From a virus: 64,000 nt of DNA. The notes under the pieces were generated by a model. It had not been told where the DNA came from. It ran no database searches and worked only from the letters and a program-made list of their open reading frames with translations. Positions within the stretch are counted from its first letter, which is position 1; every line of letters starts with the position of its first letter. Where the stretch lies: IMG/VR virus record IMGVR_UViG_3300028563_000012, positions 1-64,000 of that record; one strand, 5' to 3'. Both the position numbers and the translations under genes were made by a program. This document shows, piece after piece, positions 7,338-30,085 of this stretch.

Positions 7338-7570
7338 CAGTTGGCCACCTTAGCAATGTCTGGGTTGACGCACAGGGTGTCGCGGATGGCCTTGGCGAGA
7401 TGTTCAGCCGCCTGGATGGCGTCGGCGCGCTCGGGATACTTGCGATTGCTCAGAATCGTGATGGCGTCCGCGACGCTGAACGAGATCTTCCAACCGTCAA
7501 CATGATTCCCAATGACAGCCAATGTGACGGCAGCGTTCTCAGTCGGAGTGGGTGTTTGCTCTTGATCCAT
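7337..7570 (-). CDS. Hypothetical protein
   Basis: 77 aa; TGATG overlap with the next gene. Confidence 0.6.
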   Translation of the reverse strand: MDQEQTPTPTENAAVTLAVIGNHVDGWKISFSVADAITILSNRKYPERADAIQAAEHLAKAIRDTLCVNPDIAKVAN

Positions 7571-8141
7571 GCGCGAGTTCAGATGCTAGTTTCATGTCCT
7601 TGATGAACTCTTCTTTGCGCTTTGGGTCAGCGACGCGTAAAAGGTATGCCGGATGATAGGTGGGAATGGCTGGAATGATTGATCTTTTACCCTTCCACGT
7701 CCAACCAGTTTCCATCTCGGTCCCGCGCATTCGAGTGATGGGAGCATTGCCGCCCGTCAAAGCCCGAAAGGCTGTCGAGCCGAGCAGCAACACCGCTTTG
7801 GGTTGTACGGCTTGTAGCAGCGCATCGAGCCGCGGCGAGCATGCAACCATCTCGCTGTCATGCGGCTGCCGGTTCTGCGGCGGGCGGCAGCCGCAGACGT
7901 TCGTGATGTAGGCGTCCATGGACATGTCCAAGCCTGCCTCAGTGCCAAGCTCGCGCATGAGGCGGCCAGCCTTCCCGATGAACGGGATCCCGCGCTCGTC
8001 TTCTTCAGCACCAGGTGCTTCGCCGATGAGCATCAGGTCACAAGGCACGGGCCCGGTGCCGATCACAACACGTTGGCGAAGTGCGTGGAGCGGGCAACGT
8101 TGGCAATCAGCCCAAAGTGATTCGATACGTTCAATCATCAC
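7539..8141 (-). CDS. udg: Uracil-DNA glycosylase, family 4 (Fe-S)
   Basis: CQRCPL, GEAPGAEE, PFIGKAG, YITNV.GCRPPQNR, HPAYLLR. Confidence 0.93.
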   Translation of the reverse strand: MMIERIESLWADCQRCPLHALRQRVVIGTGPVPCDLMLIGEAPGAEEDERGIPFIGKAGRLMRELGTEAGLDMSMDAYITNVCGCRPPQNRQPHDSEMVACSPRLDALLQAVQPKAVLLLGSTAFRALTGGNAPITRMRGTEMETGWTWKGKRSIIPAIPTYHPAYLLRVADPKRKEEFIKDMKLASELAHGSRANTHSD

Positions 8142-19094: not shown

Positions 19095-22000
19095 CTACGG
19101 TTCGATCACGGTCACAGCCGCTTCGATCTTGTTGTCCAGGAAATATGTGCGTTTTTCCTTGGTCAACTTGAACTTGGCAATGACACCACGATGTAGTATT
19201 TGTTGAAAGGACTCCCAGCTGCTGGCAAAACACAAACATTCGCGGTGCAGCCCGTCTGATCCGATCAACCCCAAAAACCCCATTTCATTGCCCTTCTTGT
19301 CAGTTTTTTGCATCACCCGAACCACAAGCGCTGACATCTTCCATATCCTGTCTTCGCAAATGGGCAACACATGCTTCCCGCCCGGACGCCATCCGTCCCA
19401 CAAGCATAACTCAAGCGGATCAAAACCTGGGCTGGTTGCGCCTTGATCCTCGGCACCAATCTTGGCCTTCAACTCGTCAAGGTCCACAAGAAAGCTGGCA
19501 CGCATGGAGTGGTACTGCTTGTTGATCACGACGTGTCCAGCAACAACGGTGCCAGCGCCGCGCTCCAGCAACGGCCTGTAGATTTCATAATCACTCACAT
19601 CAATCTTCACACGCTGGTTACGCCCGGACATGTCTTCAACATTTATGTTGGCATAACGCTTGCCCCACCCCATCTTGGCTTTGTCTTCATCGCTTGGTTC
19701 CTCACCAGAATGGAAATCGCCAACCTGATTTTGACGCACCTCGATGATCCTGCCCCACATCCAAGCGTCCGGGTTGTCCCAAATCGCCTCATCGTCCATC
19801 TTCATCCAAACGGTGCGCATGCCTTCGATCATGGGCACATACGGGGCCAGCGGATCCTCGCCGCATGCCATCGGGTTGATGCGCTTGGCAATGTCTTCCG
19901 CTACGTCAGCAGGCCACTTCGGAGCAGCCGCAGATGCTCGAATGATGGCACGCAACTTGTCTTGCCAACCTTTGTTGGCTTTGCCGACATGGACCCACAA
20001 CTTTTCCAGGTTCTCATAGAGCCATTTGGTGTTGGGGACCATGCGATCGAATGCGCCACCCTGGATGAGGGCGTTGACCACGCCCTTATGGCAACGGCGG
20101 CGATCGACGCGCTCTGCAAAATCAACGAAGTCCTTGTATGGGCCGGCTGCTGCGATGGCTCGCACTGCGGCCTCGCCAACGCCCTTGATGTTGGATACTG
20201 CTCCGACGATGGCCCCGCCTTCGATGGTCCAGTTGCATGGATCCTTGGAATTGATGTCAGGCATGAGAACATCGATGCCCATACGCTTGCAGGCGCGCAC
20301 CATCCGGATGACCTTGTCGGTATCGGGCTCGACTTTCAACAGAGCCCACATGAACTCCATTGGATAATGGGTCTTCAAGTACATCTCGCGATAGGCAATC
20401 AAGCCGTATGCGACGCTGTGGGCCTTGTTGAATCCGTATGAGCCGAAGAACTTGATTTGTTCGATCAGCTTGGATGCCAACTCGGGCGTCAGCCCATGTT
20501 CGATGGCACCCTTGACGAAGTTCTCGCGCTCCTTGGCTATTGCGTCATCACCGTACTTTTTGGCAATCTTGCGGCGCAAGCTATCAGACGTTGCCGGGCT
20601 GAAACCTGCGACGTCCGTGAAAATCTTCATCACGTGCTCTTGGTAGACGATGACCCCCAACGTGTCCTTGCATATTTCATCCACGAGCGGGTGGATTGAC
20701 ACAATCTTCTTGGGATCCTTCTTGCGCTTCAGGTATTCTGTGGCAAGACCTGAGCGAGCAGTCCCAGGGCGATCCAAGGCGACCATGGCAGACACGTCAT
20801 CAAAACTGGTGAACTCAACACCATCACAAATCTTGTCTGCTGACACCGTGTCGAATTGGAAGATGCCGATGTAGTGGTGGTTGGTGAAGTTGGCCAAAGT
20901 TGGCTTGTCATCGAGTGGCAGTTTAAGCCAATCAATTTCAACCCCATGTCTCTCTGCCACAGCCTCACGGCAAAAACGCATCGCTGACAGGTTGCGAATG
21001 CCTAGTATGTCCATCTTCACCAGGCCAAGGTCGGACACGCCATACATGTCGACCGCAGTCACCACTTTGGGAGTGCCATCCCCTTTCTGGCTGCGAATCT
21101 CCAGCGGCACGACATCGATGAGCGGCACTGGGCTCACCACAACGCCCGCGGCGTGAACCCCGAGTGCTTTGACCTGGCCCTCCAACTTCTTGGCGTACTC
21201 CAAAACCTCTGGATAACGCTCGTTGAAACGCTGGCACACTGGGAATTCCTTGAACGAGTCCTCGATGGTCATGCTGGCGCGTTCATCACCGCTGCTTCGC
21301 TCAACAACGGCATCCACCACAGGTTGGATCTCACGCAGTGGGATGTCCATGATTCGAGCAATATCACGCAAACACCCCTTGCCCGTCAACTTGTTGTTGG
21401 TGCCTATCTGCGATGCGTTGTCTTCACCATAGCGCTTGTGCAGAAACGTGATCACCTCATCCCGGCGGGCATCCTCGAAATCCATGTCAACGTCAGGAAG
21501 ATCAATGCGGTCAGGGCTGAGAAAACGTTCAAACAACAAGCCAAACATGATTGGATCCAAGTCCGTGATGCCGAGCAAGAATGAGACCAAACTACCACCA
21601 GCGGACCCACGAGCTGGGCCGCACTCGATTTTGGCCGCGCGGGCCCATTTGTAAACGTCCCACACCACCAACATGTAACGCGTTACCTTCTGCGCCTCCA
21701 TGCGTTCAAGCTCATAACGCAGCCGGTCCATGTAGATCTTGCGACAATCACCAATGGAGATCCTGCGGCGAGCAGCCTCAGCCACAATCAACCTGTCAAT
21801 GTCGCGCTCTTTCCACCCACGAAGGCAAAGCGAGCGAATGTACTTGTTCTCATCATCCGAGAATTCAGGCGGGATGGACACCTTGGGAACCAGCGCCTTG
21901 AACCTATCGACTTCCAACTTGGCTTGGAGCTTGGATTCCAACTCCATGGTGGTGTCGAGCGCGCCTTGGACCTGCGCGTCGGTCATATAGGGGTGGAACT

Positions 22001-22868
22001 GCCGGAAGCTTTCGGCCATTGCTGCTCTTGGCTTGAGCCAAAAGTCGTGCGTGGTGAACGTCCAACGGTTCGGATCGCTCAAGGTCGTGTGGCTGTGGAG
22101 GCACAGCATTGCCTCTTGGTATTTCCAATCATCCTCTGCGATGTAGTGTGCATCCTGAGTTGCGATCAGTGACATGCCGAAGCGCTTGGACAACGCAATC
22201 GTCGCCTTGTTGACTCTGACTTGGTCTGGCATGTTGTGAGGCATCACCTCGCCATAAAAATCATCGCCAAATGTTTCACGCAAACGCGTAACCTTGTCGA
22301 TGGCACCGCCAGGCTTGCCATCAAGGTAATCACTGCCAATTGAGCCGATCTGGCAACCCGACAACACCACCAATCCCTCGTGATTTGCGAGCAAGCAATC
22401 GAGATCCACGCGTGGCCGCCGATAAAACCCCTTGACCCATCCCAGCGTTGTGACGCGCATCAGGTTCTTCAAACCCACAGAATCTTTGGCCAAGACGGTC
22501 AAGTGATAACGGCCGGTGATGCCCTCGTCATGCTCGAATTTCTTGATGGCCTCCTTGTGAAGCGACTTGGGAAGGTTGTCTGTGACACGGGCCTTCTCTT
22601 CCGGCGTCATGCCGCGGCGCGCCATATCCTTACACAAATACAGCTCAACCCCGTAGATGGGTCGCACAACATCATCCGGGTTTTCTTCGATTTCCTTGTG
22701 CAACCTTGTGAGCTGTCGAACAGTCCCGTGCTCCGTGAAAGCAATGGCTGGTTGCCCCATGGCTTTGGCAGCCGTCATGAAATCATGCATCTTTCCACAG
22801 CCGTCTAGCGTGGAATATTCGCTATGCGTATGGAAATGACAAAAGTCATCAGATTTGACATCGCTCAT
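19095..22868 (-). CDS. dnaE: DNA polymerase III alpha subunit (family C, DnaE)
   Basis: PHP domain HFHTHSEYS.LDG and FTEHG; RGSAGGSLV, LLFERFL, PDVDMDF, HAAGVV, KMDILG, YGFNKAHS; OB folds. Confidence 0.97.
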   Translation of the reverse strand: MSDVKSDDFCHFHTHSEYSTLDGCGKMHDFMTAAKAMGQPAIAFTEHGTVRQLTRLHKEIEENPDDVVRPIYGVELYLCKDMARRGMTPEEKARVTDNLPKSLHKEAIKKFEHDEGITGRYHLTVLAKDSVGLKNLMRVTTLGWVKGFYRRPRVDLDCLLANHEGLVVLSGCQIGSIGSDYLDGKPGGAIDKVTRLRETFGDDFYGEVMPHNMPDQVRVNKATIALSKRFGMSLIATQDAHYIAEDDWKYQEAMLCLHSHTTLSDPNRWTFTTHDFWLKPRAAMAESFRQFHPYMTDAQVQGALDTTMELESKLQAKLEVDRFKALVPKVSIPPEFSDDENKYIRSLCLRGWKERDIDRLIVAEAARRRISIGDCRKIYMDRLRYELERMEAQKVTRYMLVVWDVYKWARAAKIECGPARGSAGGSLVSFLLGITDLDPIMFGLLFERFLSPDRIDLPDVDMDFEDARRDEVITFLHKRYGEDNASQIGTNNKLTGKGCLRDIARIMDIPLREIQPVVDAVVERSSGDERASMTIEDSFKEFPVCQRFNERYPEVLEYAKKLEGQVKALGVHAAGVVVSPVPLIDVVPLEIRSQKGDGTPKVVTAVDMYGVSDLGLVKMDILGIRNLSAMRFCREAVAERHGVEIDWLKLPLDDKPTLANFTNHHYIGIFQFDTVSADKICDGVEFTSFDDVSAMVALDRPGTARSGLATEYLKRKKDPKKIVSIHPLVDEICKDTLGVIVYQEHVMKIFTDVAGFSPATSDSLRRKIAKKYGDDAIAKERENFVKGAIEHGLTPELASKLIEQIKFFGSYGFNKAHSVAYGLIAYREMYLKTHYPMEFMWALLKVEPDTDKVIRMVRACKRMGIDVLMPDINSKDPCNWTIEGGAIVGAVSNIKGVGEAAVRAIAAAGPYKDFVDFAERVDRRRCHKGVVNALIQGGAFDRMVPNTKWLYENLEKLWVHVGKANKGWQDKLRAIIRASAAAPKWPADVAEDIAKRINPMACGEDPLAPYVPMIEGMRTVWMKMDDEAIWDNPDAWMWGRIIEVRQNQVGDFHSGEEPSDEDKAKMGWGKRYANINVEDMSGRNQRVKIDVSDYEIYRPLLERGAGTVVAGHVVINKQYHSMRASFLVDLDELKAKIGAEDQGATSPGFDPLELCLWDGWRPGGKHVLPICEDRIWKMSALVVRVMQKTDKKGNEMGFLGLIGSDGLHRECLCFASSWESFQQILHRGVIAKFKLTKEKRTYFLDNKIEAAVTVIEP

Positions 22869-23326
22869 CGTCTTGACATTGCCCTTCGATGGCGCCGGGC
22901 TCGCGCCTTACCGTGCCAAGCCCCATCAAAGCCGTTGCATTCGTTGCAGCTCAACTTGATCAGACCACGCTTGTGGTCACGTTCGTACATGCGCATGCGG
23001 TGCATCATGTTCATCTTGCGCGGCTCCCAATCACGAACGTTATCGCCATGATCGAAACAGAGCAGCACAGGTGCGCCCTTGCTGTCCATGTCACCAATCC
23101 TGGCACCGCACTCGCCACATTCATTCCCAAGCTCAGCACGCAATCGATCGCGGCGCTCACAAGCCTGCAAGTAAACACGATGTTTCCGCCTTCTCCAATG
23201 GAGCTTGTGATCACGCTTTGGCTTGGTTTTTTCATTGTGGCCGAATTCGAAATCAAGCCCGACACCGCCGAACGTCGAGATGCCGCTGTCATCCGAATCA
23301 GAAACTGGCTGCACGTGTTTCGCCAT
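22865..23326 (-). CDS. HNH-like Zn-binding protein
   Basis: CGECG...FDH...CNECN. Confidence 0.55.
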   Translation of the reverse strand: MAKHVQPVSDSDDSGISTFGGVGLDFEFGHNEKTKPKRDHKLHWRRRKHRVYLQACERRDRLRAELGNECGECGARIGDMDSKGAPVLLCFDHGDNVRDWEPRKMNMMHRMRMYERDHKRGLIKLSCNECNGFDGAWHGKARARRHRRAMSRR

Positions 23327-23900
23327 GAATCATCACCCGTTCGATTATCTCTTCAGGGCTTTGCCCATTCGCAATAATCACCCGGATGTTGCCCGTGGGG
23401 ATGTGGCAAACGACATGATCAATGGCTTTAGCCTCCCAATCACCGACGCGTCCACCGCGTGCCCTGCGCACCTCGTATGGTTGTCGCATCAACACCAAAA
23501 TGGTATGGTTCCCGGACAACAGCTTCACCCAAAGTCGCAGAGCAGCCAAGCCATTCTTGCTCAGCCTTGTCGTGCTCAACCATGGCTCGTTGCCGTAGGA
23601 GCTTGGCGGCATCCCGTCCCACATATCATCATCGTAAGCCAACCCTGAGATCAGCGACCTGTCAAGGATGACGTCGGTGCAATGAGTTGCCCCCAGCAAA
23701 TCGGCAACAACAAGATCCTCGCGCCAGGTATTGACCCGCATGGGGATGTCTTTCAACTCGGGGTATGCGTCGCCGGGCTGGTGGCTGTCGGGTGCGCGCC
23801 TGAATGGGCGGTACACGGGCGCATGGATGAAATTCGCCAAACTCTTGGCGACTGTTCCCTTGCCAACGCCTGATGCGCCTTCGAAAATCACCACTGCCAT
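23298..23900 (-). CDS. P-loop deoxynucleoside monophosphate (thymidylate-type) kinase
   Basis: IFEGASGVGKGT P-loop and ILDRSLIS motif. Confidence 0.8.
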   Translation of the reverse strand: MAVVIFEGASGVGKGTVAKSLANFIHAPVYRPFRRAPDSHQPGDAYPELKDIPMRVNTWREDLVVADLLGATHCTDVILDRSLISGLAYDDDMWDGMPPSSYGNEPWLSTTRLSKNGLAALRLWVKLLSGNHTILVLMRQPYEVRRARGGRVGDWEAKAIDHVVCHIPTGNIRVIIANGQSPEEIIERVMIHGETRAASF

Positions 23901-23904
23901 TGGG

Positions 23905-25101
23905 CTAAAACTCCAAGCAACGTTTGTAGGCGCGCGACAATGATTCCATGGCCATGGCCATGGTTGGCATGCCGATATTCAACGGCGGCGTGATTTTGAT
24001 GGTGCCCGGCCCATCTCTGAACGTTGGGAGCAGCAGGCCCTCGGCCAATGCCTCGCGCTCCAACATGCGACGGTCAACAGGCACATCACAAGCAATCATC
24101 ATGCCGACTGCTCGCACTTGCCCCATGTCTGGGAATGAGTCGCGAGTTTCCAATGCAAACTTGGTGAAGGATCCGACCGAGATCACGCTGTCCAAGTTGC
24201 TTTGATTCTCCAACCAAGAGCACATCACGTTCACGAACGCATTGGACATTGGGTTGCCTCCGAATGTGCTGAAATGGGTGCCGGGCGTGAACGCGTTGCC
24301 CGCGTTGCCACGCGCCAAGGCCAGCCCCACAGGGAAGCCCATGCCGATGCCCTTGGCCAGACAGGTGATGTCGGGCTCAAGCCCAACGCGTTGTGCGTAA
24401 GTCGGTGCGCCAGTGCGTCCCGAGCCCGTCTGAACCTCATCGAAGATGAGCAAGCTGCCAACGCTGTGGGCCATGGCTTGGATGCTCTGCAACACTTCGG
24501 TTTCGTACGGCACGACATCATTGTTACCCATCACAGGTGCCATGATCACCGCGGCCAACGATGGTCCAAGGCTGATGATCATGTCACACATGCGCTCGAT
24601 GGGCGCGTGGATGAAGCCGCCTGGATAGGGGCCCATGCCTTCATAGTGATAAGATGGCCCATCACCCGCAGCAATGGCACCGTACGTCCGGCCGTGAAAG
24701 CCGCCCGACACGGACAAAATGTTGTTCCTTGGCGGGTTTGACAACTTTGCCTGCTTGTAATGGTACAAGCGCGCCATCTTGATGGCAGCTTCCACGGCCT
24801 CGGTTCCGCTATTGCACCAAAACACACGACTCGCGCCCATGAGCTTGCAGACCCGCTCGCTGACATAATTGCGCAATGGGTTGGTGTACAAGTTTGGAGC
24901 ATGGGCACCAAAATGGAAATCGGCCAGACATGACATGGCTTCGTTGATGCTTGCCCAAGACGTTCCCAAAGATGCTGTGCCTGTATCCGTGAACAAGTCG
25001 AGCAGCTTACGGCCGTCTGCGCGTACCAAGTACGGCCCATCAGCCCCAACGATGTTGAAATTTCTGAACTCAACTGTATCCATTAGATGGTTGGCCGTCA
25101 T
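23905..25101 (-). CDS. Class III PLP-dependent aminotransferase (ArgD/OAT-like, divergent)
   Basis: NSGTEAVEAAIK, FHGRT, DEVQTG.GRTG, AKG (PLP lysine), STFGGNP, PPL. Confidence 0.93.
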   Translation of the reverse strand: MTANHLMDTVEFRNFNIVGADGPYLVRADGRKLLDLFTDTGTASLGTSWASINEAMSCLADFHFGAHAPNLYTNPLRNYVSERVCKLMGASRVFWCNSGTEAVEAAIKMARLYHYKQAKLSNPPRNNILSVSGGFHGRTYGAIAAGDGPSYHYEGMGPYPGGFIHAPIERMCDMIISLGPSLAAVIMAPVMGNNDVVPYETEVLQSIQAMAHSVGSLLIFDEVQTGSGRTGAPTYAQRVGLEPDITCLAKGIGMGFPVGLALARGNAGNAFTPGTHFSTFGGNPMSNAFVNVMCSWLENQSNLDSVISVGSFTKFALETRDSFPDMGQVRAVGMMIACDVPVDRRMLEREALAEGLLLPTFRDGPGTIKITPPLNIGMPTMAMAMESLSRAYKRCLEF

Positions 25102-25103
25102 TG

Positions 25104-25256
25104 TTACCCTCTTTGCGCTTCCTTCAAATCATGTTCCCAAATGCGAACAACACCCCAGCCAGCAGTGATGGCGCGCTGATCATGTTTTGCATCCGCCTGT
25201 CGTCTCTCTGTGTTCTCGTTCGGATGGTGGATGGGACAGACTCCCGCCAGCAGCGG
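25104..25256 (-). pseudogene. C-terminal remnant of a Vsr/DUF559-type endonuclease
   Basis: Hand translation CPIHHPNENTERRQADAKHDQRAITAGWGVVRIWEHDLKEAQRG*; in-frame TGA just upstream and no ATG. Confidence 0.65.
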
Positions 25257-25304
25257 TCAGCCTGCCACGTCTAGCCATCTCTGATGAATCGTACGTCCGA
25301 AGCA

Positions 25305-26291
25305 TCACTTCCACAGATACGGATCACAGCCCCACAACGCACGATACTCTTCAGCTCTTTCCAACATCTCATCCTGACGAGGGATGATGTTGCGAGTCTT
25401 GCGAAGCGCAACAAGCCGATCATCAGGAGTCGCACCAGGCACATGCTTCGAACCTTCTTCATCGGAGCACAGATACAAGGGGCAAGGGCTGTGTGCGTCG
25501 GATCCGTCCACGCGCCTGGAATTCTCCAGTCGGTAAAGGCAACTGCTGAATTTTCCATCATTCCCCACGCAAGGCGGGTGAACGATTTTGCGAAACATCG
25601 GGTGCACCTTTTCGGCAAGCTCGTTCACGATGCCGGTAATGATCGGGCCCCAAAGCCCCATCTGAAGGATGTAGCAACCGCGCTTCCCCAAGATGTGGAG
25701 CAAGGCTTGAAGCGTCAACTTCCAGCTGATGCGGTGTTGGGCGCCGAGCGGGATGAGGTCACGCGCATCTTCCATGGGCACCCCGGCTGCCACCAAATCC
25801 TTGTAGGCATCTTGGATAAGGTGCATGGTTGACACGAATCGATTCACAGCAAGGAATGAATCACCATCCGGACGCTTGCATGTTTTCCCCTTCAGCGTCT
25901 CGGGCACGCGATACATCCCGCGATCCGCAAACGTGCTCATGTCCTGGATGCGCATCGATTGCGACCACCAGGTTGACGTGGCAATGTCCGGAATGGTATC
26001 CACGCCATAGTTGTCGCCAGCGCGGGCGCCAATTCGATGTCGTACCATTTGCTCCCGGAACGAGACACTGACGCCCTCCAGCATGAAGGTGAACTCAATG
26101 TCTTCTCCCACGGGGATTTGCTGCCGGATGACTTGCCAAAACAGCTCTTCCAGCTTGGAATGCGGCACGGTGTCGCGGACTTCCTTGATGGACAACGGCA
26201 CCGGGCCGTCAACTTTGCTGGCTTCCCAGAGCAGCCAGACGGTTGCCAACGGATCGGGCGTAGACGAAACAAGCGTGACTTTCGGTTTCAT
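25305..26291 (-). CDS. thyX: Flavin-dependent thymidylate synthase (ThyX)-family protein, divergent
   Basis: E...FTF..EGVS..FREQMVRHR, SQSMR, GVPMEDARDLIP, ILGKR. Confidence 0.85.
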   Translation of the reverse strand: MKPKVTLVSSTPDPLATVWLLWEASKVDGPVPLSIKEVRDTVPHSKLEELFWQVIRQQIPVGEDIEFTFMLEGVSVSFREQMVRHRIGARAGDNYGVDTIPDIATSTWWSQSMRIQDMSTFADRGMYRVPETLKGKTCKRPDGDSFLAVNRFVSTMHLIQDAYKDLVAAGVPMEDARDLIPLGAQHRISWKLTLQALLHILGKRGCYILQMGLWGPIITGIVNELAEKVHPMFRKIVHPPCVGNDGKFSSCLYRLENSRRVDGSDAHSPCPLYLCSDEEGSKHVPGATPDDRLVALRKTRNIIPRQDEMLERAEEYRALWGCDPYLWK

Positions 26292-26309
26292 GGCATTGGA
26301 CCTTTCAGT

Positions 26310-27239
26310 TCATATATTTGCCAACGCTGCTTTGATGTCGTCCCAATTGCGACACCCAAGTACGTTGGCATGTTTGAAGTTCTCTATGTCATCCCACCCC
26401 GGCAGTTTCAACACCTTCACACCGATGGCTGCCAATTCGGATGCATATTTGTGCCGATCCTCGATCATCGCGATGATTCGAGCAGGTTGCATCTGACGGA
26501 CGGCATCGGCCTTGTCGTTGGTGAAAATGATATGATCTTGACCCAATCCTACCTTGTCACACCATTCCATGGTGTCTGCGTACACGCGGGTGTGCCGGCG
26601 GTACGGTCTTGACGTCACCATGATGAGGCGCCGATCCCTAACAGCATGGGCGCAATATTCATGAGTTCGGCCGCGCCATCTCGAAAGCGTGTTGACGGCA
26701 CCAGAAATGGTCCCAAGCGTCAGGAATCCACCCTCAGCATAGAAGCGCTCTTTGGCCTTTTCTTGTTCCAAGGAGCCTTCGGGCGCGCCGTTGATGTCGA
26801 TGCCGCGAGCAGCAGTCCAAGCCGGAAAGCCATGCGCCCAATCAGCCACGCAATCGTCCAAGTCGCAGAGCAACACGTCAACATCGCGCAAGCTGTCACA
26901 TTGCGCCTTCCATTTGGCGTCAACCACCATGGTCTTGCGATTGAACTCAACCAACATCATCTCGGGTGTCACCCCGTGCAATGCCATCAGCGCAACGAGG
27001 TATTTCATCACGTCAATGCCGTCTTCCGCAACGGCGGCAGGGTGACGCTTGACAGCCTTCATGATGATGTGATACTTGTCGATGTCCAAGCGCTTTTGAA
27101 GCTCGCCAAGCTCCTCATACATCCCAAGGATCAGTTCCTTGGTCAGCGCGCTCTTATCATCGTCTGACAATCCTTCCCATGAATGCCAGAGAGATTGCTG
27201 CTCAATTTGCCGCCGCCATATTTTTTCCAAGTCTCCCAC
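26310..27239 (-). CDS. Fusion of a MazG/dimeric dUTPase-like pyrophosphatase and an HAD 5'(3')-deoxynucleotidase
   Basis: N-terminal EELGEL...EDGIDVMKYL; C-terminal DLDDCVAD, VTSR, K, IEDR (HAD motifs I-IV). Confidence 0.8.
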   Translation of the reverse strand: MGDLEKIWRRQIEQQSLWHSWEGLSDDDKSALTKELILGMYEELGELQKRLDIDKYHIIMKAVKRHPAAVAEDGIDVMKYLVALMALHGVTPEMMLVEFNRKTMVVDAKWKAQCDSLRDVDVLLCDLDDCVADWAHGFPAWTAARGIDINGAPEGSLEQEKAKERFYAEGGFLTLGTISGAVNTLSRWRGRTHEYCAHAVRDRRLIMVTSRPYRRHTRVYADTMEWCDKVGLGQDHIIFTNDKADAVRQMQPARIIAMIEDRHKYASELAAIGVKVLKLPGWDDIENFKHANVLGCRNWDDIKAALANI

Positions 27240-27310
27240 GTCTTACGACTCCATTTCTATTGCCTTTCAACGCGTCACTTAGCGCTCGACGGTGCTCATC
27301 ATAGAACTTG

Positions 27311-28312
27311 TCAGAAGCGTTGATCATGTGCCCACTGAATCATCTTTGTCAATGACTTTTCGGCAGTGGAGCGCGGATCCCATTCGGCGAAGCGTCCAAG
27401 CATGAGCCAGTTCTTCGGCAACACCAATGGGCCGGGCAACGGTTTGAGGTGCCCATTCAACACCCTTGGCTCTGACAATGTCTCCTGTACAAACATGTCG
27501 CGATCGGAACGATGCGAAAGCAGCGGCATCAAATCATCGGTGTCGAGTGGCTTGGGCGCATCGGGCTTGCCCCAAGGGATCTCAAGTTGGGCCGTGGTCG
27601 GACTCGTCTTGGTGATCCGTGACACGGTCGAAGCCAGCGGCGTGTACAGGTAATCCCACCACATGTCGGTTTGGATGCCGCTAACGTCCACAATGCTGAG
27701 CTTGTTGCAAGACGTGTCCGGGATGCCCGATTGGACGGTGAAAGGCACAATCTTCCTGAGAACGGGCAGCGGCAGCGTGTTGATCAAGAAATCATAAGGC
27801 ACATTTCGATCATGGACCGTGACGCTTTTGGCATCAACCCGTCGCACCCGAGCGAAGGTGTGAACCTTGCAAGACTCCTCGGCTTGTTTTGCCAGAGCAG
27901 CAACCACGACCGCATTATCACACCGAGCCGACCAATTGTGCTTCGACCCAGGATCATTCATGCAGTCGGCACGAAACCCTTCCAGTGATTTCCTCGTTTT
28001 CTTCCAGTGTGCCGTCTGAATCTGCAACCGATCCAAGGTGCTCATCCCCATGAGACACTCCGGATGGCTCTTTGCAACTCCGTCAATGTAAATGGCCCCA
28101 CGCGGCAGATGGAAACTGTAATGGATCCCCAAAGCGTCCAACATGTCTGACGCGTCCTTGGTCGCCCGCAGGTACTTCAGACCACCAGCCGCGAACGTTC
28201 CGCCCAATTTGTCGCCGGCCTCAATCAGCGTGACATCGACTCCGCCCTTGTTTTTCAAGACATGGGCCGCAATCAAGCCCGAGATCCCGCCACCCAAAAT
28301 TACAACTCTCAT
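27311..28312 (-). CDS. FAD-dependent oxidoreductase (amine oxidase / UDP-galactopyranose mutase-like fold)
   Basis: VVILGGGISGL..A, IEA...LGG, YD.LINTLPL, LGRFAEW. Confidence 0.85.
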   Translation of the reverse strand: MRVVILGGGISGLIAAHVLKNKGGVDVTLIEAGDKLGGTFAAGGLKYLRATKDASDMLDALGIHYSFHLPRGAIYIDGVAKSHPECLMGMSTLDRLQIQTAHWKKTRKSLEGFRADCMNDPGSKHNWSARCDNAVVVAALAKQAEESCKVHTFARVRRVDAKSVTVHDRNVPYDFLINTLPLPVLRKIVPFTVQSGIPDTSCNKLSIVDVSGIQTDMWWDYLYTPLASTVSRITKTSPTTAQLEIPWGKPDAPKPLDTDDLMPLLSHRSDRDMFVQETLSEPRVLNGHLKPLPGPLVLPKNWLMLGRFAEWDPRSTAEKSLTKMIQWAHDQRF

Positions 28313-29349
28313 CGTGGCGCCTTTGCCAAATGACACATGATGGCGCGAATGTTGTCCATGCGAAGTTGCCCCGGAATGACATCGTTGACGCAACACTTGA
28401 ATGCCCCGTCGTTCCAAACGACGATGTCTGCCTTGACAATGCTTTGCAGCAAAGGATCTTCCTTCAGCATCGGCAATTGCACACGAAATCCCGGATCCCG
28501 AGTCCTGATGCGCCAGGATGCAAGCGGGCGACGCTTGGCGCCCGCGGCGATGGATTGATACACAGTCACGTAATCGGACTTGGTGGTGCGATCAATCATG
28601 TACAACTCACCGGGCGATGCTGAGTTTGCATCATGCGCAACCCCAACGTCGCAGAGCTTGGCCACCTCGACCATGATTGTTGCGACTTGTTTCACGGCAT
28701 CCGGGAAGCGGCCTGATGTGTGCTCGACTTTCAGTGTCACCGGCACTGCTTTGGCCTTCGTCTTTGGCGTTTGCTTGGCCGTCTTTTGCGCCAATAAGCG
28801 CTCTGTGAGTTGAACGATTTGCTCGGGTGACTTGCTCTTCAACATGTCTTGTTGGTTGCGATTGGTTGCCTCTGCGACCATTCGCAAAGCCGAGCAGCGT
28901 GAAAGCCAAGCGCAAGCAGGCTCCGTCAATTTCGTAGTCGGATTCACCCCGCCGATGCAAACATGATCAGGCTCGTTGAACCCGAGGCAAGGCGGAATAT
29001 CAACGTTGCTAGGCTGTTGCGCCTCAGACAACCCGGCAACCAAATCCAGGTACCAAGGAACGATCTTGGATAGATGCCCCACGGATGACGTGCTTTGCTT
29101 TAGCTTGCCAGTCGTTGCGTCGAATTGCCCCAAGATCACGACTGTGAAGTGCTGGCCACGCTTCAAATCCGACAAAAACACAACACTTCCCCAATCGTAC
29201 TCCTCAATGCATCTGCGCCATTCGATGGACTGCTGCCAATACAACGGGCTGGCATGAAACCCGTGTTTTGGAGAAGGATCCAAGCTGTGTTGCGCTATCA
29301 CATTGCGGACAAACGCCGCATCCATCTCATTCGGGTTGCTGTATACCAT
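28309..29349 (-). CDS. Hypothetical protein with a Cys cluster
   Basis: 346 aa; PCLG..C..C..C; ATGA-coupled to the oxidoreductase. Confidence 0.7.
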   Translation of the reverse strand: MVYSNPNEMDAAFVRNVIAQHSLDPSPKHGFHASPLYWQQSIEWRRCIEEYDWGSVVFLSDLKRGQHFTVVILGQFDATTGKLKQSTSSVGHLSKIVPWYLDLVAGLSEAQQPSNVDIPPCLGFNEPDHVCIGGVNPTTKLTEPACAWLSRCSALRMVAEATNRNQQDMLKSKSPEQIVQLTERLLAQKTAKQTPKTKAKAVPVTLKVEHTSGRFPDAVKQVATIMVEVAKLCDVGVAHDANSASPGELYMIDRTTKSDYVTVYQSIAAGAKRRPLASWRIRTRDPGFRVQLPMLKEDPLLQSIVKADIVVWNDGAFKCCVNDVIPGQLRMDNIRAIMCHLAKAPR

Positions 29350-30085
29350 GGGTGTCTTCAGCGGATTTATTTGCGTTTTGCGTTTTGGTGAATTGCTTCA
29401 GCTCAAGCAATGCCGCGTTGGCCCGCTTATTTGTCCATTCTTGGTGTCGAGCTATGGCTGTGTGGGTAATCCTTCCCCATTGGCCTGTGAGATTGCGCGC
29501 AAGCACAGCCAGTTGCGGCGGCTTGGAAAGCATCAGCTGCGCAACAACTTTGCCATCCGGGGAAAGCGTGGCCTTATTCATGGCACGACGCATCGCGATC
29601 TCAGACAGCTGTGAGCCTCTGTGTGTTCCGTCCTCAGCCTCCAGCATGGCAATTTCTGGATTCTCGTTCTCCCAACTGGTGGACTCCTCCACACGGTTGT
29701 CCATTTCCACATGCATGCACGGTCGTTTCACCCACCGTTCATTAATGTGCGTAATCTTGCCGCAATCGTATTGAGCAACTTTCTCAATGACTTCGATGTG
29801 CGGGGTGCGACGCTGGGCCAAACATTCGGCCGCAACCATCGCCAACGCGTTGTACACCAAGTGGTGCACGTATCCCATGAGACTACCGCGGCCGCTGTTG
29901 TAAGTATCCACCGCGTAAGCAGCAGCCAGCCGGGCCTCCTGTGCTAAGTCATCCGGCGGCATCGATTGCAGTCTGAACTTGCGCACGTGACGCTGGACCA
30001 CAACCTCAATTTCTGCCACTTTTTGTGAGTACAAAAGCTTGCCTTGCGGCGATGATTGCCAACCCTGTGGGATGTAATTTGCCAT
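29327..30085 (-). CDS. Phage sigma-70-family sigma factor
   Basis: Region 2-like DDLAQEARLAA..AVDTYNSGRGSL.GY; C-terminal HTH-like ITHTAIARH. Confidence 0.7.
   Translation of the reverse strand: MANYIPQGWQSSPQGKLLYSQKVAEIEVVVQRHVRKFRLQSMPPDDLAQEARLAAAYAVDTYNSGRGSLMGYVHHLVYNALAMVAAECLAQRRTPHIEVIEKVAQYDCGKITHINERWVKRPCMHVEMDNRVEESTSWENENPEIAMLEAEDGTHRGSQLSEIAMRRAMNKATLSPDGKVVAQLMLSKPPQLAVLARNLTGQWGRITHTAIARHQEWTNKRANAALLELKQFTKTQNANKSAEDTHGIQQPE

Follow-up and report, generated by a model that had tools for sequence, protein, structure and literature searches.

Several described systems install a modified pyrimidine in phage DNA before replication. In the 5-hydroxymethyl-dU Bacillus phages SPO1, SP8 and phi-e, as for hmC in T4, a thymidylate synthase (TS)-type enzyme acting on the mononucleotide is combined with a dedicated dNMP kinase, with breakdown of the canonical nucleotide and with a phage polymerase able to incorporate the product; the SPO1-type phages employ ThyA-family hydroxymethylases (PMC8989533). 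SP-15 (Thornevirus), which encodes two Thy1-family paralogues, synthesises 5-(4',5'-dihydroxypentyl)uracil at the dNTP level (PMC5977210). The locus described here is from an uncultured rhizosphere phage with a complete 102.5-kb genome, the first 64,000 nucleotides of which form the window. All four roles of base replacement claimed for it in a preliminary description (a TS-family enzyme, a dNMP kinase, a pyrophosphatase/nucleotidase and a phage polymerase) have candidates in the module. Unlike in the SPO1 type, the genome has no PF00303 match, the C5 enzyme being of the flavin-dependent ThyX family, and the module has both an aminotransferase and a flavoprotein, neither of which is part of SPO1-type systems. 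The likeness to SP-15 lies in the proposed pre-replicative making of a C5-modified dUTP analogue, with a ThyX paralogue as the suspected modifying enzyme; the SP-15 side chain, however, has no amine but hydroxyls and sugars.

In the post-replicative phages M6, ViI, PaMx11 and PhiW-14, a 5-hmdU DNA kinase and an amino-acid:DNA transferase work with PLP, radical SAM and flavin enzymes; PaMx11 makes 5-aminomethyl-dU, and tailoring in such phages draws on a flavoprotein and a PLP enzyme (PMC8989533). An amine-bearing C5 substituent at thymidine is also the likely end result here. The post-replicative enzymes, however, act on replicated DNA and need 5-HMUDK and aGPT-Pplase/AADT, whereas phmmer searches of the whole 102.5-kb genome with the phage M6 proteins (gp51-54) detected no homologues, extending to the genome an absence first noted for the window. 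Moreover, their PLP enzymes are decarboxylases rather than class III transaminases, and their flavoprotein is MnmC1/DAO-like rather than UDP-galactopyranose mutase (UGM)/protoporphyrinogen oxidase (PPO)-like. The tRNA xnm5U pathway (MnmEG, then the MnmC oxidoreductase and methyltransferase) is similar in that carbon is transferred to C5 of uracil with the help of flavin and folate, an aminomethyl-type group being left there, and in that an FAD enzyme follows, with a SAM methyltransferase-like gene in some relatives of the module as a further parallel; it differs in its RNA substrate, in having no transaminase and in that the MnmG and MnmC folds are unrelated to ThyX and to the flavoprotein described here. 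We consider that the module probably makes, ahead of replication, a C5-modified dUMP that bears nitrogen. We found no published description of the five-gene module.

Gene order, linkage and genome content

The identities of the five genes are upheld by Pfam/NCBIfam matches, family profiles and AF2 folds (Table 1), and their folds, motifs, conservation and linkage are established. All five are co-oriented on the minus strand, as first described, but the picture of closely spaced genes running from a sigma factor to the polymerase needs amendment. The gaps of 71 nt (FAD protein/MazG-HAD), 18 nt (MazG-HAD/ThyX) and 4 nt (aminotransferase/kinase) agree with it, whereas that between ThyX and the aminotransferase does not. 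A sixth ORF, of 153 aa, overlaps both the kinase and DnaE genes; it has no match in Pfam, PHROG or NCBIfam and no similarity to the zinc-finger protein that holds the same position in relatives. Directly upstream of the module lies not the sigma factor but the gene for the 346-aa protein, which the start of the FAD protein gene overlaps by ATGA, the Sigma70_r2 gene being next along; the two form a single ORF in loci L028 and L036. Within the ThyX-aminotransferase gap, the minus strand at 25251-25267 reads TGGCAG-N-GCTG, with GG-N10-GC spacing, which is a weak lead only.

Table 1. Features of the module and its surroundings, with positions in the window
Feature	Positions	Strand	Basis
DnaE (DNA polymerase III alpha)	19095..22868	-	NF004226, 4e-247
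153-aa ORF	22865..23326	-	no family match; between kinase and DnaE
Thymidylate-kinase-like dNMP kinase (P-loop), 200 aa	23298..23900	-	weak Thymidylate_kin match and family profile
Class III aminotransferase	23905..25101	-	PF00202, 4.7e-67
ThyX-aminotransferase intergenic gap, 203 nt	25102..25304		ORF coordinates
ThyX paralogue, 328 aa	25305..26291	-	Pfam Thy1, 1e-17
MazG-like/HAD fusion	26310..27239	-	family profile matches
Small FAD-dependent protein, 333 aa	27311..28312	-	Pfam N-terminal matches, AF2 model, family invariants
Upstream gene, 346-aa protein	28309..29349	-	no family match
Sigma-70 region-2 protein	29327..30085	-	Sigma70_r2, 24.2 bits vs cut-off 24

Linkage was assessed in the 39 viral loci that hold the source ThyX family. 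The FAD protein, MazG-HAD, ThyX-like protein, aminotransferase, kinase and DnaE recur together in 26 of them at 30-50% amino-acid identity, so the arrangement is beyond chance and the co-occurrence of the five families in related phages, on which the preliminary description had staked its proposal, is borne out. Most of the loci, however, represent one phage lineage with conserved synteny, and many of the co-occurrences are therefore not independent. The order of ThyX and aminotransferase is reversed in 5 of the 26 module loci; the two genes and the kinase also adjoin in unrelated neighbourhoods (L038, L019/L020 and L046), and in L038 this trio is kept while the flavoprotein and MazG-HAD are absent within 7 kb. 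PolA phages carry members of this ThyX family as well, accompanied there by a radical SAM enzyme but by no aminotransferase. A class I methyltransferase-like gene lies inside the module in 7 loci, and a sulfotransferase gene does so in L019/L020 (contigs of L006/L007; scored on L006, 6e-8).

These data bear on a rival explanation, namely that the ThyX paralogue makes dTMP for ordinary thymidylate supply, with the kinase being a thymidylate kinase, MazG-HAD a house-cleaning enzyme and the other genes auxiliary; the aminotransferase and flavoprotein might then serve, e.g., polyamine/ornithine metabolism for DNA condensation and be co-located by shared descent. The predominance of one syntenic lineage is consistent with this proposal, as is the absence of any other thymidylate synthase from the complete genome; the paralogue scores above the Thy1 cut-off. 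The Pbunavirus (PB1-like) phages lend it further support, since their replication region holds a related set: gp68, gp61 (ThyX), gp59 (a HAD_PNKP fusion) and gp57 (DnaE-like), including a small FAD protein of 333 aa that weakly matches the flavoprotein family profile (3e-6), a HAD phosphatase and, as in the source module, a downstream DnaE-type polymerase. PB1 gp61 carries the annotation of an ordinary ThyX and resembles the source ThyX in its four Cys residues and C-terminal extension; divergence of the source ThyX alone thus does not mean that it is not a dTMP synthase. We found no literature report of modified DNA in PB1-type phages. The PB1-like set, however, has no aminotransferase or MazG-like domain, its genes are scattered among unrelated ORFs, and its ThyX has RTR rather than RHR, no insertion and a Thy1 score of 108 bits compared with 65 for the source paralogue. 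Searches of the complete genome found no ThyA (PF00303), dCMP deaminase, trimeric dUTPase or ribonucleotide reductase; five genes for a dTTP boost alone would be unlikely in a phage without the last three of these, and the module reads rather as a specialisation. The aminotransferase stays with ThyX and the kinase despite order swaps and changes of neighbourhood, and relatives insert methyltransferase-like and sulfotransferase genes inside the module, both of which argue against ordinary supply. Overall, we regard that explanation as unlikely.

The enzymes of the module

The ThyX paralogue scores above the Pfam Thy1 cut-off, but below that of the thyX equivalog family TIGR02170 (54 bits vs 87.9). 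Its AF2 model (pLDDT 89.3) matches Thermotoga maritima ThyX with a Foldseek probability of 1.0 and a TM of 0.69-0.75 (normalised on target). Across 123 sequences, the family invariants are R84-H85-R86, S112, R114, R177, R204, C206, C241, C251 and C270; thus RHR, S-x-R and both dUMP arginines, i.e. the nucleotide-binding residues, are kept, which is as expected for a dTMP synthase. The folate-stacking His (the His53 equivalent) is missing from the paralogue, 22 residues are inserted after RHR, and the C-terminal extension is rich in Cys. The lost His, the insertion and the sub-cut-off TIGR02170 score point to neofunctionalisation. The family was absent from the 185,579 cellular species genomes searched.

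The remodelled active-site loop might instead indicate another substrate (dCMP, CMP or UMP) or a product not destined for DNA, such as a free modified nucleotide acting as a signal, inhibitor or anti-defence molecule; ThyX-like enzymes act in nucleoside-antibiotic pathways, which offer a model for such a role. UGM-like enzymes bind uridine nucleotides, although the likeness here is one of predicted fold only, and the assigned ThyX substrate, kinase and pyrophosphatase specificities are predictions. Against this stand the invariance of the uracil-contacting Arg (equivalent to T. maritima R174), the deoxyribonucleotidase type of the phosphatase, the thymidylate-kinase type of the kinase and, in 22 related loci, a replicative polymerase that immediately follows the module; we consider such a role improbable.

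The aminotransferase, judged by its sequence, derives from the ArgD/AstC group, its best NCBIfam match being acetylornithine transaminase (265 bits vs a cut-off of 372). It retains the PLP lysine and DEVQTG, but in 103 of 103 phage clusters the motifs read (A/S)PxxGNND, HFSTFGG and (V/I)K(I/L)TPPLN, where bacterial ArgD has EPxQGEGG, HGSTFGG and VRLxPPL; bacterial ArgDs at 36-37% identity retain the canonical residues. The active site has thus been rewired clade-wide at the ArgD substrate-site motifs, which favours neofunctionalisation and argues against a merely auxiliary role in thymidylate supply. Among the altered residues is the Arg/Glu pair with which enzymes of the ArgD type handle glutamate/2-oxoglutarate, so the enzyme is more than an ArgD that forms its customary aldehyde.

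The Pfam matches of the flavoprotein (Amino_oxidase, NAD_binding_8 and DAO) span only its N-terminal dinucleotide-binding part. Its AF2 model (pLDDT 89.7) places it in the UGM/PPO/amine oxidase fold group, with VIA-align Z-scores of 27.0 to UGM (4dsh), 25.4 to human PPO and 20-21 to amine/L-amino-acid oxidases. The family invariants are GGGxSG, GGLKY and LGRFAEWDPR, and the ATG at 28312 agrees with the family N-terminus, MRVVILGGG.

The MazG-HAD fusion has no Pfam match; its family profile identifies an N-terminal MazG-like all-alpha NTP pyrophosphatase (residues ~35-110; 2q73, 1.3e-5 over positions 40-100, with YpjD and DCTPP1 weaker) and a C-terminal HAD 5'(3')-deoxyribonucleotidase-like phosphatase (residues ~120-300; 6g2n, 1.5e-6 over profile positions 125-239). 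E43, E46 and D76 are among the invariants, as is the HAD motif DxDxxxxD (D126, D128 and D133). A fused dNMP nucleotidase would oppose dTTP supply. Along its whole length, the kinase family profile matches SPbeta YorR (6e-11) and the thymidylate kinase of Aquifex (2pbr, 5e-10); the P-loop G-x-G-K and D80-R81-x3-S85-x3-Y89 are invariant.

A proposed route to the modified nucleotide

The modification reading is suggested by the rewired aminotransferase, the tailoring genes inside the module, the sparse nucleotide metabolism and the lack of M6-type enzymes. We infer every catalytic step, substrate and product of the route that follows. The MazG-like domain would convert dUTP and/or dTTP to the monophosphate and the fused nucleotidase-like domain would remove dTMP, while the ThyX paralogue, with reduced flavin, would transfer a one-carbon unit to dUMP at C5, leaving a hydroxymethyl (or otherwise unreduced) rather than a methyl group. 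The flavoprotein may oxidise this product to 5-formyl-dUMP, which the rewired omega-aminotransferase may convert to 5-aminomethyl-dUMP; the thymidylate-kinase-like enzyme would phosphorylate the latter, and host NDP kinase would complete the triphosphate. Incorporation would then fall to the phage DnaE, which we presume to use the module's product. In some relatives the methyltransferase-like or sulfotransferase gene may add further decoration. We put forward this mononucleotide-level tailoring, with a non-canonical thymidine-type nucleotide resulting before replication, only tentatively. 5-Aminomethyl-dU is a natural phage DNA base, although one made by a different route (PMC8989533). The UGM/PPO/amine oxidase fold is not the usual one for alcohol-to-aldehyde oxidation, which counts against the formyl-forming step. 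The L038 arrangement, the occurrence of the ThyX family in PolA phages and the four Cys shared with PB1 gp61 also weigh against the route.

Alternatively, the aminotransferase, alone or together with the flavoprotein, may form an aldehyde from an amine, e.g. (acetyl)ornithine, putrescine or lysine, which the ThyX paralogue would carry as a flavin N5 iminium to C5 of dUMP and reduce, giving an amino- or carboxy-alkyl-dUMP akin to the dihydroxypentyl-dUMP of SP-15 and again a pre-replicative modified thymidine. UGM, the top structural match of the flavoprotein, is the textbook flavin-N5-iminium enzyme, and two fold matches of the paralogue, PDB entries 7ndw and 7ndz, indicate by their titles that ThyX flavin and formaldehyde react directly. 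The missing folate-stacking His and the ArgD-type ancestry of the aminotransferase (such enzymes turn omega-amines into aldehydes) likewise favour this route, and the minimal core in L038, which has no flavoprotein, fits an aldehyde-supplying transaminase. Among cultured phages, the best match to the ThyX family (126 bits to the family profile) is the product of LIS04 gene 124; the record of this Listeria phage is classed in the species Thornevirus SP15, and SP-15 itself makes its alkyl-uracil pre-replicatively. However, the LIS04 protein, unlike the source ThyX, has no RHR, no insertion and only one of the four Cys residues, its gene neighbourhood has no class III aminotransferase, and neither gp9 nor gp130 of SP-15 matches the ThyX family profile. 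The altered Arg/Glu pair also speaks against a standard ArgD aldehyde, and we know of no ThyX that transfers more than one carbon. We regard aldehyde attachment as somewhat less likely and slightly favour the hydroxymethyl-formyl-aminomethyl route.

A further point against the proposal is that the phage assembles to completion from short-read metagenomes; if its DNA is modified, standard library preparation evidently still works. If the proposed pathway is correct, this phage would make an amine-bearing thymidine substitute before replication, by a route that has not yet been described.

The module and its genomic setting

The five proteins of the module (a flavoprotein, a MazG-HAD fusion, a ThyX-like protein, a class III aminotransferase and a thymidylate-kinase-like kinase) probably make a C5-modified, nitrogen-bearing dUMP that, once phosphorylated, serves as a substrate of the phage DnaE, with the fusion supplying dUMP and/or removing dTTP and dTMP; we infer each mechanistic step of this proposal. 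The window is the first 64 kb of a viral record of 102,534 bp, which CheckV rates as complete and which turned up in at least 17 runs of rhizosphere metagenomes dated 2019; the stretch itself occurs in 22 rhizosphere runs, the phage material being in all cases assembled contigs of short-read metagenomes. A DNA similarity search of the window against 50,697 phage records gave no match, and the only tblastn matches to its DnaE, ThyX and aminotransferase proteins were bacterial contaminants or distantly related cultured phages.

The ATG of the FAD protein overlaps the stop codon of the gene preceding it, the gaps down the module are 71, 18, 203 and 4 nt, and the genes for the kinase, the 153-aa ORF and DnaE overlap one another. 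The module had been placed between the sigma factor and the polymerase by the preliminary description; DnaE does lie downstream, but the adjoining upstream gene has no family match and the Sigma70_r2 protein is encoded one gene further, the two being fused in two relatives. The 153-aa ORF is unrelated to the zinc-finger ORF that holds the same position in relatives. A sigma-54-like GG-N10-GC motif (TGGCAGGCTGACCGCTG, 25251-25267, minus strand), located in the 203 nt that separate the ThyX and aminotransferase genes, was set aside as too weak, the loose pattern occurring 5 times in the window with 1.7 expected.

The replication region around the module encodes RecA, Mre11/Rad50-like, primase, DnaB-like helicase, 5'-3' exonuclease, HU-like and UDG-superfamily proteins. 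Searches of the complete genome revealed no ThyA (PF00303), second Thy1, dCMP deaminase, trimeric dUTPase or ribonucleotide reductase, so that the module is the only recognisable nucleotide-metabolism equipment of the genome. That its ThyX is the sole thymidylate synthase present is in keeping with an ordinary reading, which we consider unlikely, wherein ThyX and the thymidylate kinase supply dTTP and the remaining genes are unrelated. The UDG-superfamily protein speaks against DNA with plain uracil, and may have a bearing on tolerance of a dUMP-derived base.

In the complete genome (55% GC), TpA is depleted to a very marked degree (odds ratio 0.33), and CA/TG is in excess (1.37). The TpA odds ratio is 0.24-0.43 in many module-bearing relatives, 0.55 in Pseudomonas phage PB1, 0.47 in the hypermodifying phage M6, and near 1.0 in Bacillus phage SP-15 and Listeria phage LIS04. 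In some relatives the CpG odds ratio is extremely low (0.07 in L042, 0.27 in L019, 0.44 in L036), with a TG/CA excess of 1.3-1.5.

Features of the module in the window, and of related or accessory genes in other viral loci (L-handles)
Feature	Location	Strand	Size	Remarks
FAD protein	first of five module ORFs (28312 down to 23298)	minus	333 aa	
MazG-HAD fusion	second module ORF	minus	309 aa	no Pfam match, MazG-like part included
ThyX-like protein	third module ORF	minus	328 aa	Thy1 domain
Class III aminotransferase	fourth module ORF	minus	398 aa	
Kinase	fifth module ORF	minus	200 aa	P-loop protein
ORF without known family	between kinase and DnaE		153 aa	
DnaE	after 153-aa ORF		1257 aa	
UDG-superfamily protein	window 7539-8141	minus		PF03167, 7e-31
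Methyltransferase-like gene	L001:7180-7983; L003:7186-7998; L005:6430-7200; L028:8136-8888; L046:3665-4456			
Sulfotransferase	L019/L020 (same contigs as L006/L007), 10491-11264 in L006 coordinates			after kinase; PF13469, 6e-8 (scored on L006)
Radical-SAM-linked ThyX loci	L029:4288-9765; L032, L034, L035, L039-L041, L044			family A polymerase, AAA_24, DUF669, PD-(D/E)XK lineage
PB1 region	L051:42057-50172			
SP-15 gp130	L055:30670-31911			

Active-site features of the module proteins

The ThyX-like protein is a clear Thy1 family member (PF02511, 65 bits, cut-off 24.8; 65.7 bits when the complete genome was searched), the AF2 model of which (pLDDT 89.3) matches the ThyX fold in Foldseek with a probability of 1.0 (E 2.6e-8, TM 0.69-0.75 normalised on Thermotoga maritima ThyX chains), whereas it scores below the cut-off of the TIGR02170 thyX equivalog (54.3 versus 87.9 bits). 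By comparison with T. maritima ThyX, the RHR motif, S112-x-R114, R177 and R204 are invariant in the family, two of its conserved arginines being presumably those that hold dUMP; retention of this nucleotide site is also in keeping with ordinary dTMP synthesis. The equivalent of T. maritima His53, which we take to be the folate/flavin-stacking histidine (H53A and H53D entries are also among the fold matches), is missing, the aligned segment being IPVGE(H/D) with I59-P60 invariant. The family further has a 22-residue insertion, modelled with low confidence, that parts RHR from SxR, and, at the C terminus, an extension in which four cysteines are invariant. The latter are also present in PB1 gp61 and in the second ThyX copies of two radical-SAM-type loci, L032 and L040, and hence mark a wider phage ThyX branch. 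At its C terminus, SP-15 gp130 has NPPCPLLL, resembling the PPCPLHL that is invariant in the family and surrounds its fourth cysteine.

The aminotransferase matches PF00202 at 4.7e-67, and its LAKGIG (with the PLP lysine) and DEVQTG motifs align to those of Aquifex AcOAT (2eh6). Its nearest solved or curated relatives are acetylornithine/succinylornithine transaminases, but it is below the cut-offs of all 25 listed families, the best of the curated ArgD-type families being NF002325 (264.9 bits versus 372). Among cellular proteins, its closest ArgD relatives are alphaproteobacterial. Where ArgD has the EPxQGEGG acidic pair and a C-terminal Arg, the window protein has APVMGNND and IKITPPLN, changes at what we take to be the glutamate/2-oxoglutarate carboxylate site of ornithine-type transaminases. 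In an alignment of 120 database matches, (A/S)PxxGNND, HFSTFGG and (V/I)K(I/L)TPPLN occur in 103/103 phage-type clusters, whereas the next-ranked bacterial ArgD-like proteins have EPxQGE(G/A)G, H(G/A)STFGG and, in the third motif, Arg, 17/17 keeping E...GE(G/A)G and R; as judged by this alignment, the active-site change is clade-wide. Two aminotransferase clusters, P0182 and P0219, share one longest-contig figure (102,356 bp), and some relatives may carry two aminotransferase paralogues.

The confident model of the flavoprotein shows an FAD fold of two domains, with GxGxxG at the N terminus. Its closest folds are eukaryote-type UDP-galactopyranose mutase (UGM, 4dsh; Z 27.0, rmsd 2.9, 321 residues aligned) and protoporphyrinogen oxidase (PPO, 4ivm; Z 25.4), which lie within 2 Z units of each other, followed by amine oxidases (Z 20-21); at 333 aa it is shorter than these structural matches (420-510 aa). 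Sequence profiles match its FAD-binding N terminus only, and the atlas clusters closest to it are short, as yet uncharacterised families resembling amine oxidases. For the fusion, family profiles relate the C-terminal half to 5'(3')-deoxyribonucleotidases (6g2n, 1.5e-6; 4l57, 2e-6; 2jao, 1.4e-5), with a DxDGxxxD HAD motif in which D126, D128 and D133 are invariant, and the N-terminal part to MazG-like pyrophosphatases (2q73, 1.3e-5; 2q5z, 2.8e-5; YpjD, 0.004; DCTPP1, 0.04-0.08), with E43, E46 and D76 invariant. The single kinase sequence falls below its Pfam cut-off (17.2 versus 27), but its family profile matches thymidylate kinase 2pbr at 5e-10 over residues 1-187, and SPbeta YorR also over the full length; the P-loop G-x-G-K and D80-R81, S85 and Y89 of a DRxxxSxxxY motif are invariant.

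Within the general reading of a nitrogen-bearing dUMP derivative, we lean slightly, and tentatively, towards tailoring on the nucleotide itself, in which a hydroxymethyl group on dUMP would be converted to formyl by the flavoprotein and then to aminomethyl by the transaminase, because each enzyme is used once and because the end product would be 5-aminomethyl-dU, already known as a phage DNA base (PMC8989533). Nearly as good, and correspondingly doubtful, is the proposal that the transaminase makes an aldehyde that the ThyX paralogue attaches to C5, which would explain both loss of the folate-site histidine and the resemblance of the flavoprotein to a classic flavin-iminium enzyme.

Conservation and neighbourhoods in related phages

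IMG/VR, queried first with the ThyX-like protein and afterwards with the family alignment, yielded 39 loci, the ORFs of which were clustered by all-against-all comparison and examined with profile searches. Co-occurrence of the five families in related phages, the test set beforehand by the preliminary description, was borne out, with all five genes present in 26 of the 39 loci, usually with DnaE next, and with module proteins 30-50% identical in amino acid sequence to those of the window. ThyX and aminotransferase have swapped places in 5 of these 26. ThyX, aminotransferase and kinase stay together in four differently placed loci (L038, L019/L020 and L046), adjoining an SNF2 helicase and peptidases in L038 and accompanied by a divergent flavoprotein and a sulfotransferase in L019/L020; aldehyde attachment by ThyX would account for this trio as a minimal core.

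In seven loci a gene of 250-270 aa adjoins that for ThyX. Weak Pfam methyltransferase matches and class I SAM-methyltransferase neighbours in a language-model protein atlas suggest that this family, which has an ExFGGSGW motif and gave no match against PDB sequences, may be methyltransferase-like. Such an enzyme would obtain an obvious target from on-nucleotide tailoring to an aminomethyl group, in parallel to tRNA mnm5U, which is a further reason for our preference. The window has neither the sulfotransferase nor the methyltransferase-like gene. Variable decorating enzymes in a constant core are expected of a modification pathway, and not of plain dTMP synthesis.

The module occurs in soil and rhizosphere metagenome phages of roughly 100 kb (>360 ThyX clusters and >100 aminotransferase clusters), and contigs of 100638, 105429, 106028, 108800, 115675 and 90824 bp are common to both match lists, which fits ThyX and aminotransferase being on the same genomes of about this size. 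A pattern scan for the ThyX family in 185,579 species genomes gave 106 pattern matches, of which 0 were confirmed. DnaE ORFs of 1545-1990 aa, compared with 1257 aa in the window, are present in L003/L014, L012, L015, L025, L031, L037 and L047, with tblastn alignments that break mid-protein; it is possible that they carry insertions such as inteins.

A second phage type, represented by 10 loci, has the module's ThyX family flanked on one side by a radical SAM/SPASM gene and on the other by a family A polymerase, with a YfbR-like 5'-deoxynucleotidase and a nucleoside 2-deoxyribosyltransferase upstream; the aminotransferase is absent from all 10. In the ThyX tree, the sequences linked to radical SAM genes group together within the aminotransferase-linked ones, with modest support. 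The radical SAM gene is flanked by two ThyX paralogues in L032 and L040. This gene set may be another undescribed pyrimidine-tailoring set. A broader reading, to which we give limited credence, is that the virus-only ThyX branch acts on dUMP as a general C5 'alkylating' enzyme, with a flavin that carries a carbon unit which is not a folate methylene, or that releases an unreduced product, and that lineage-specific partners (a rewired, nucleotide-directed omega-transaminase and a UGM-like flavoprotein here, a radical SAM/SPASM enzyme in the PolA phages) would finish new DNA bases, all at the nucleotide level. Abundant soil phages would then have a new family of thymidine replacements that bear an amine.

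Relation to known systems and significance

The logic of the module is that of pre-replicative base replacement, as in SPO1, T4 and SP-15, but the ThyA-type hydroxymethylase that defines the SPO1/T4 type is absent (no PF00303 match in the complete genome). Likewise, 5-hmdU DNA kinase and amino-acid:DNA transferase, which define post-replicative hypermodification, were not detected, in agreement with the preliminary description. Phmmer searches, with single-sequence sensitivity, using phage M6 gp51, gp52, gp53, gp54, gp58 and gp59 (amino-acid:DNA transferase, PLP decarboxylase, radical SAM isomerase, 5-hmdU DNA kinase, dUMP hydroxymethylase and HD hydrolase) gave no match at E <= 10 among all stop-to-stop ORFs of at least 50 aa in the 102.5-kb genome. 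SP-15, in which an alkyl-uracil is made as a dNTP and which has two Thy1 paralogues, offers a partial precedent for aldehyde attachment (PMC5977210). The best cultured match to the ThyX family is gene 124 of LIS04, the record of which is classed in the SP-15 species; SP-15 gp9 and gp130 themselves, however, fail to match the family profile.

Among cultured phages, PB1 has gp61, a ThyX with the same four cysteines, gp68 (333 aa, annotated as hypothetical), which weakly matches the flavoprotein profile, a HAD_PNKP fusion (gp59) and a DnaE-like protein (gp57), whereas the kinase, MazG-HAD and aminotransferase family profiles gave no match in the PB1 region. These similarities suggest that a reduced relative of the module may be present in the PB1-like phages, which are well studied; such a looser version of the gene set is also compatible with the ordinary supply of dTTP. 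A literature search found no paper on a ThyX-transaminase module, or one combining ThyX, aminotransferase and phage hypermodification, and a Tn-seq preprint and the Carin-5 paper contain nothing on such a module.

The proposal of a nitrogen-bearing base made before replication has implications for both enzymology and phage biology. To our knowledge, every amine-bearing thymidine hypermodification characterised so far is assembled on replicated DNA, starting from 5-hmdU produced by a ThyA-type enzyme. If the proposal is correct, there would be a second, independent solution, in which a ThyX-type enzyme together with a transaminase and a flavoprotein builds an amine-bearing base on the free nucleotide; it would involve a new ThyX-family reaction, the first nucleotide-directed class III transaminase and a phage DnaE polymerase that accepts the modified product, all three of which would be useful for enzymatic production of modified DNA. 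Since the module is common in soil and rhizosphere phages, many environmental phage genomes may carry an unrecognised base, which may affect restriction, CRISPR targeting and sequencing recovery.
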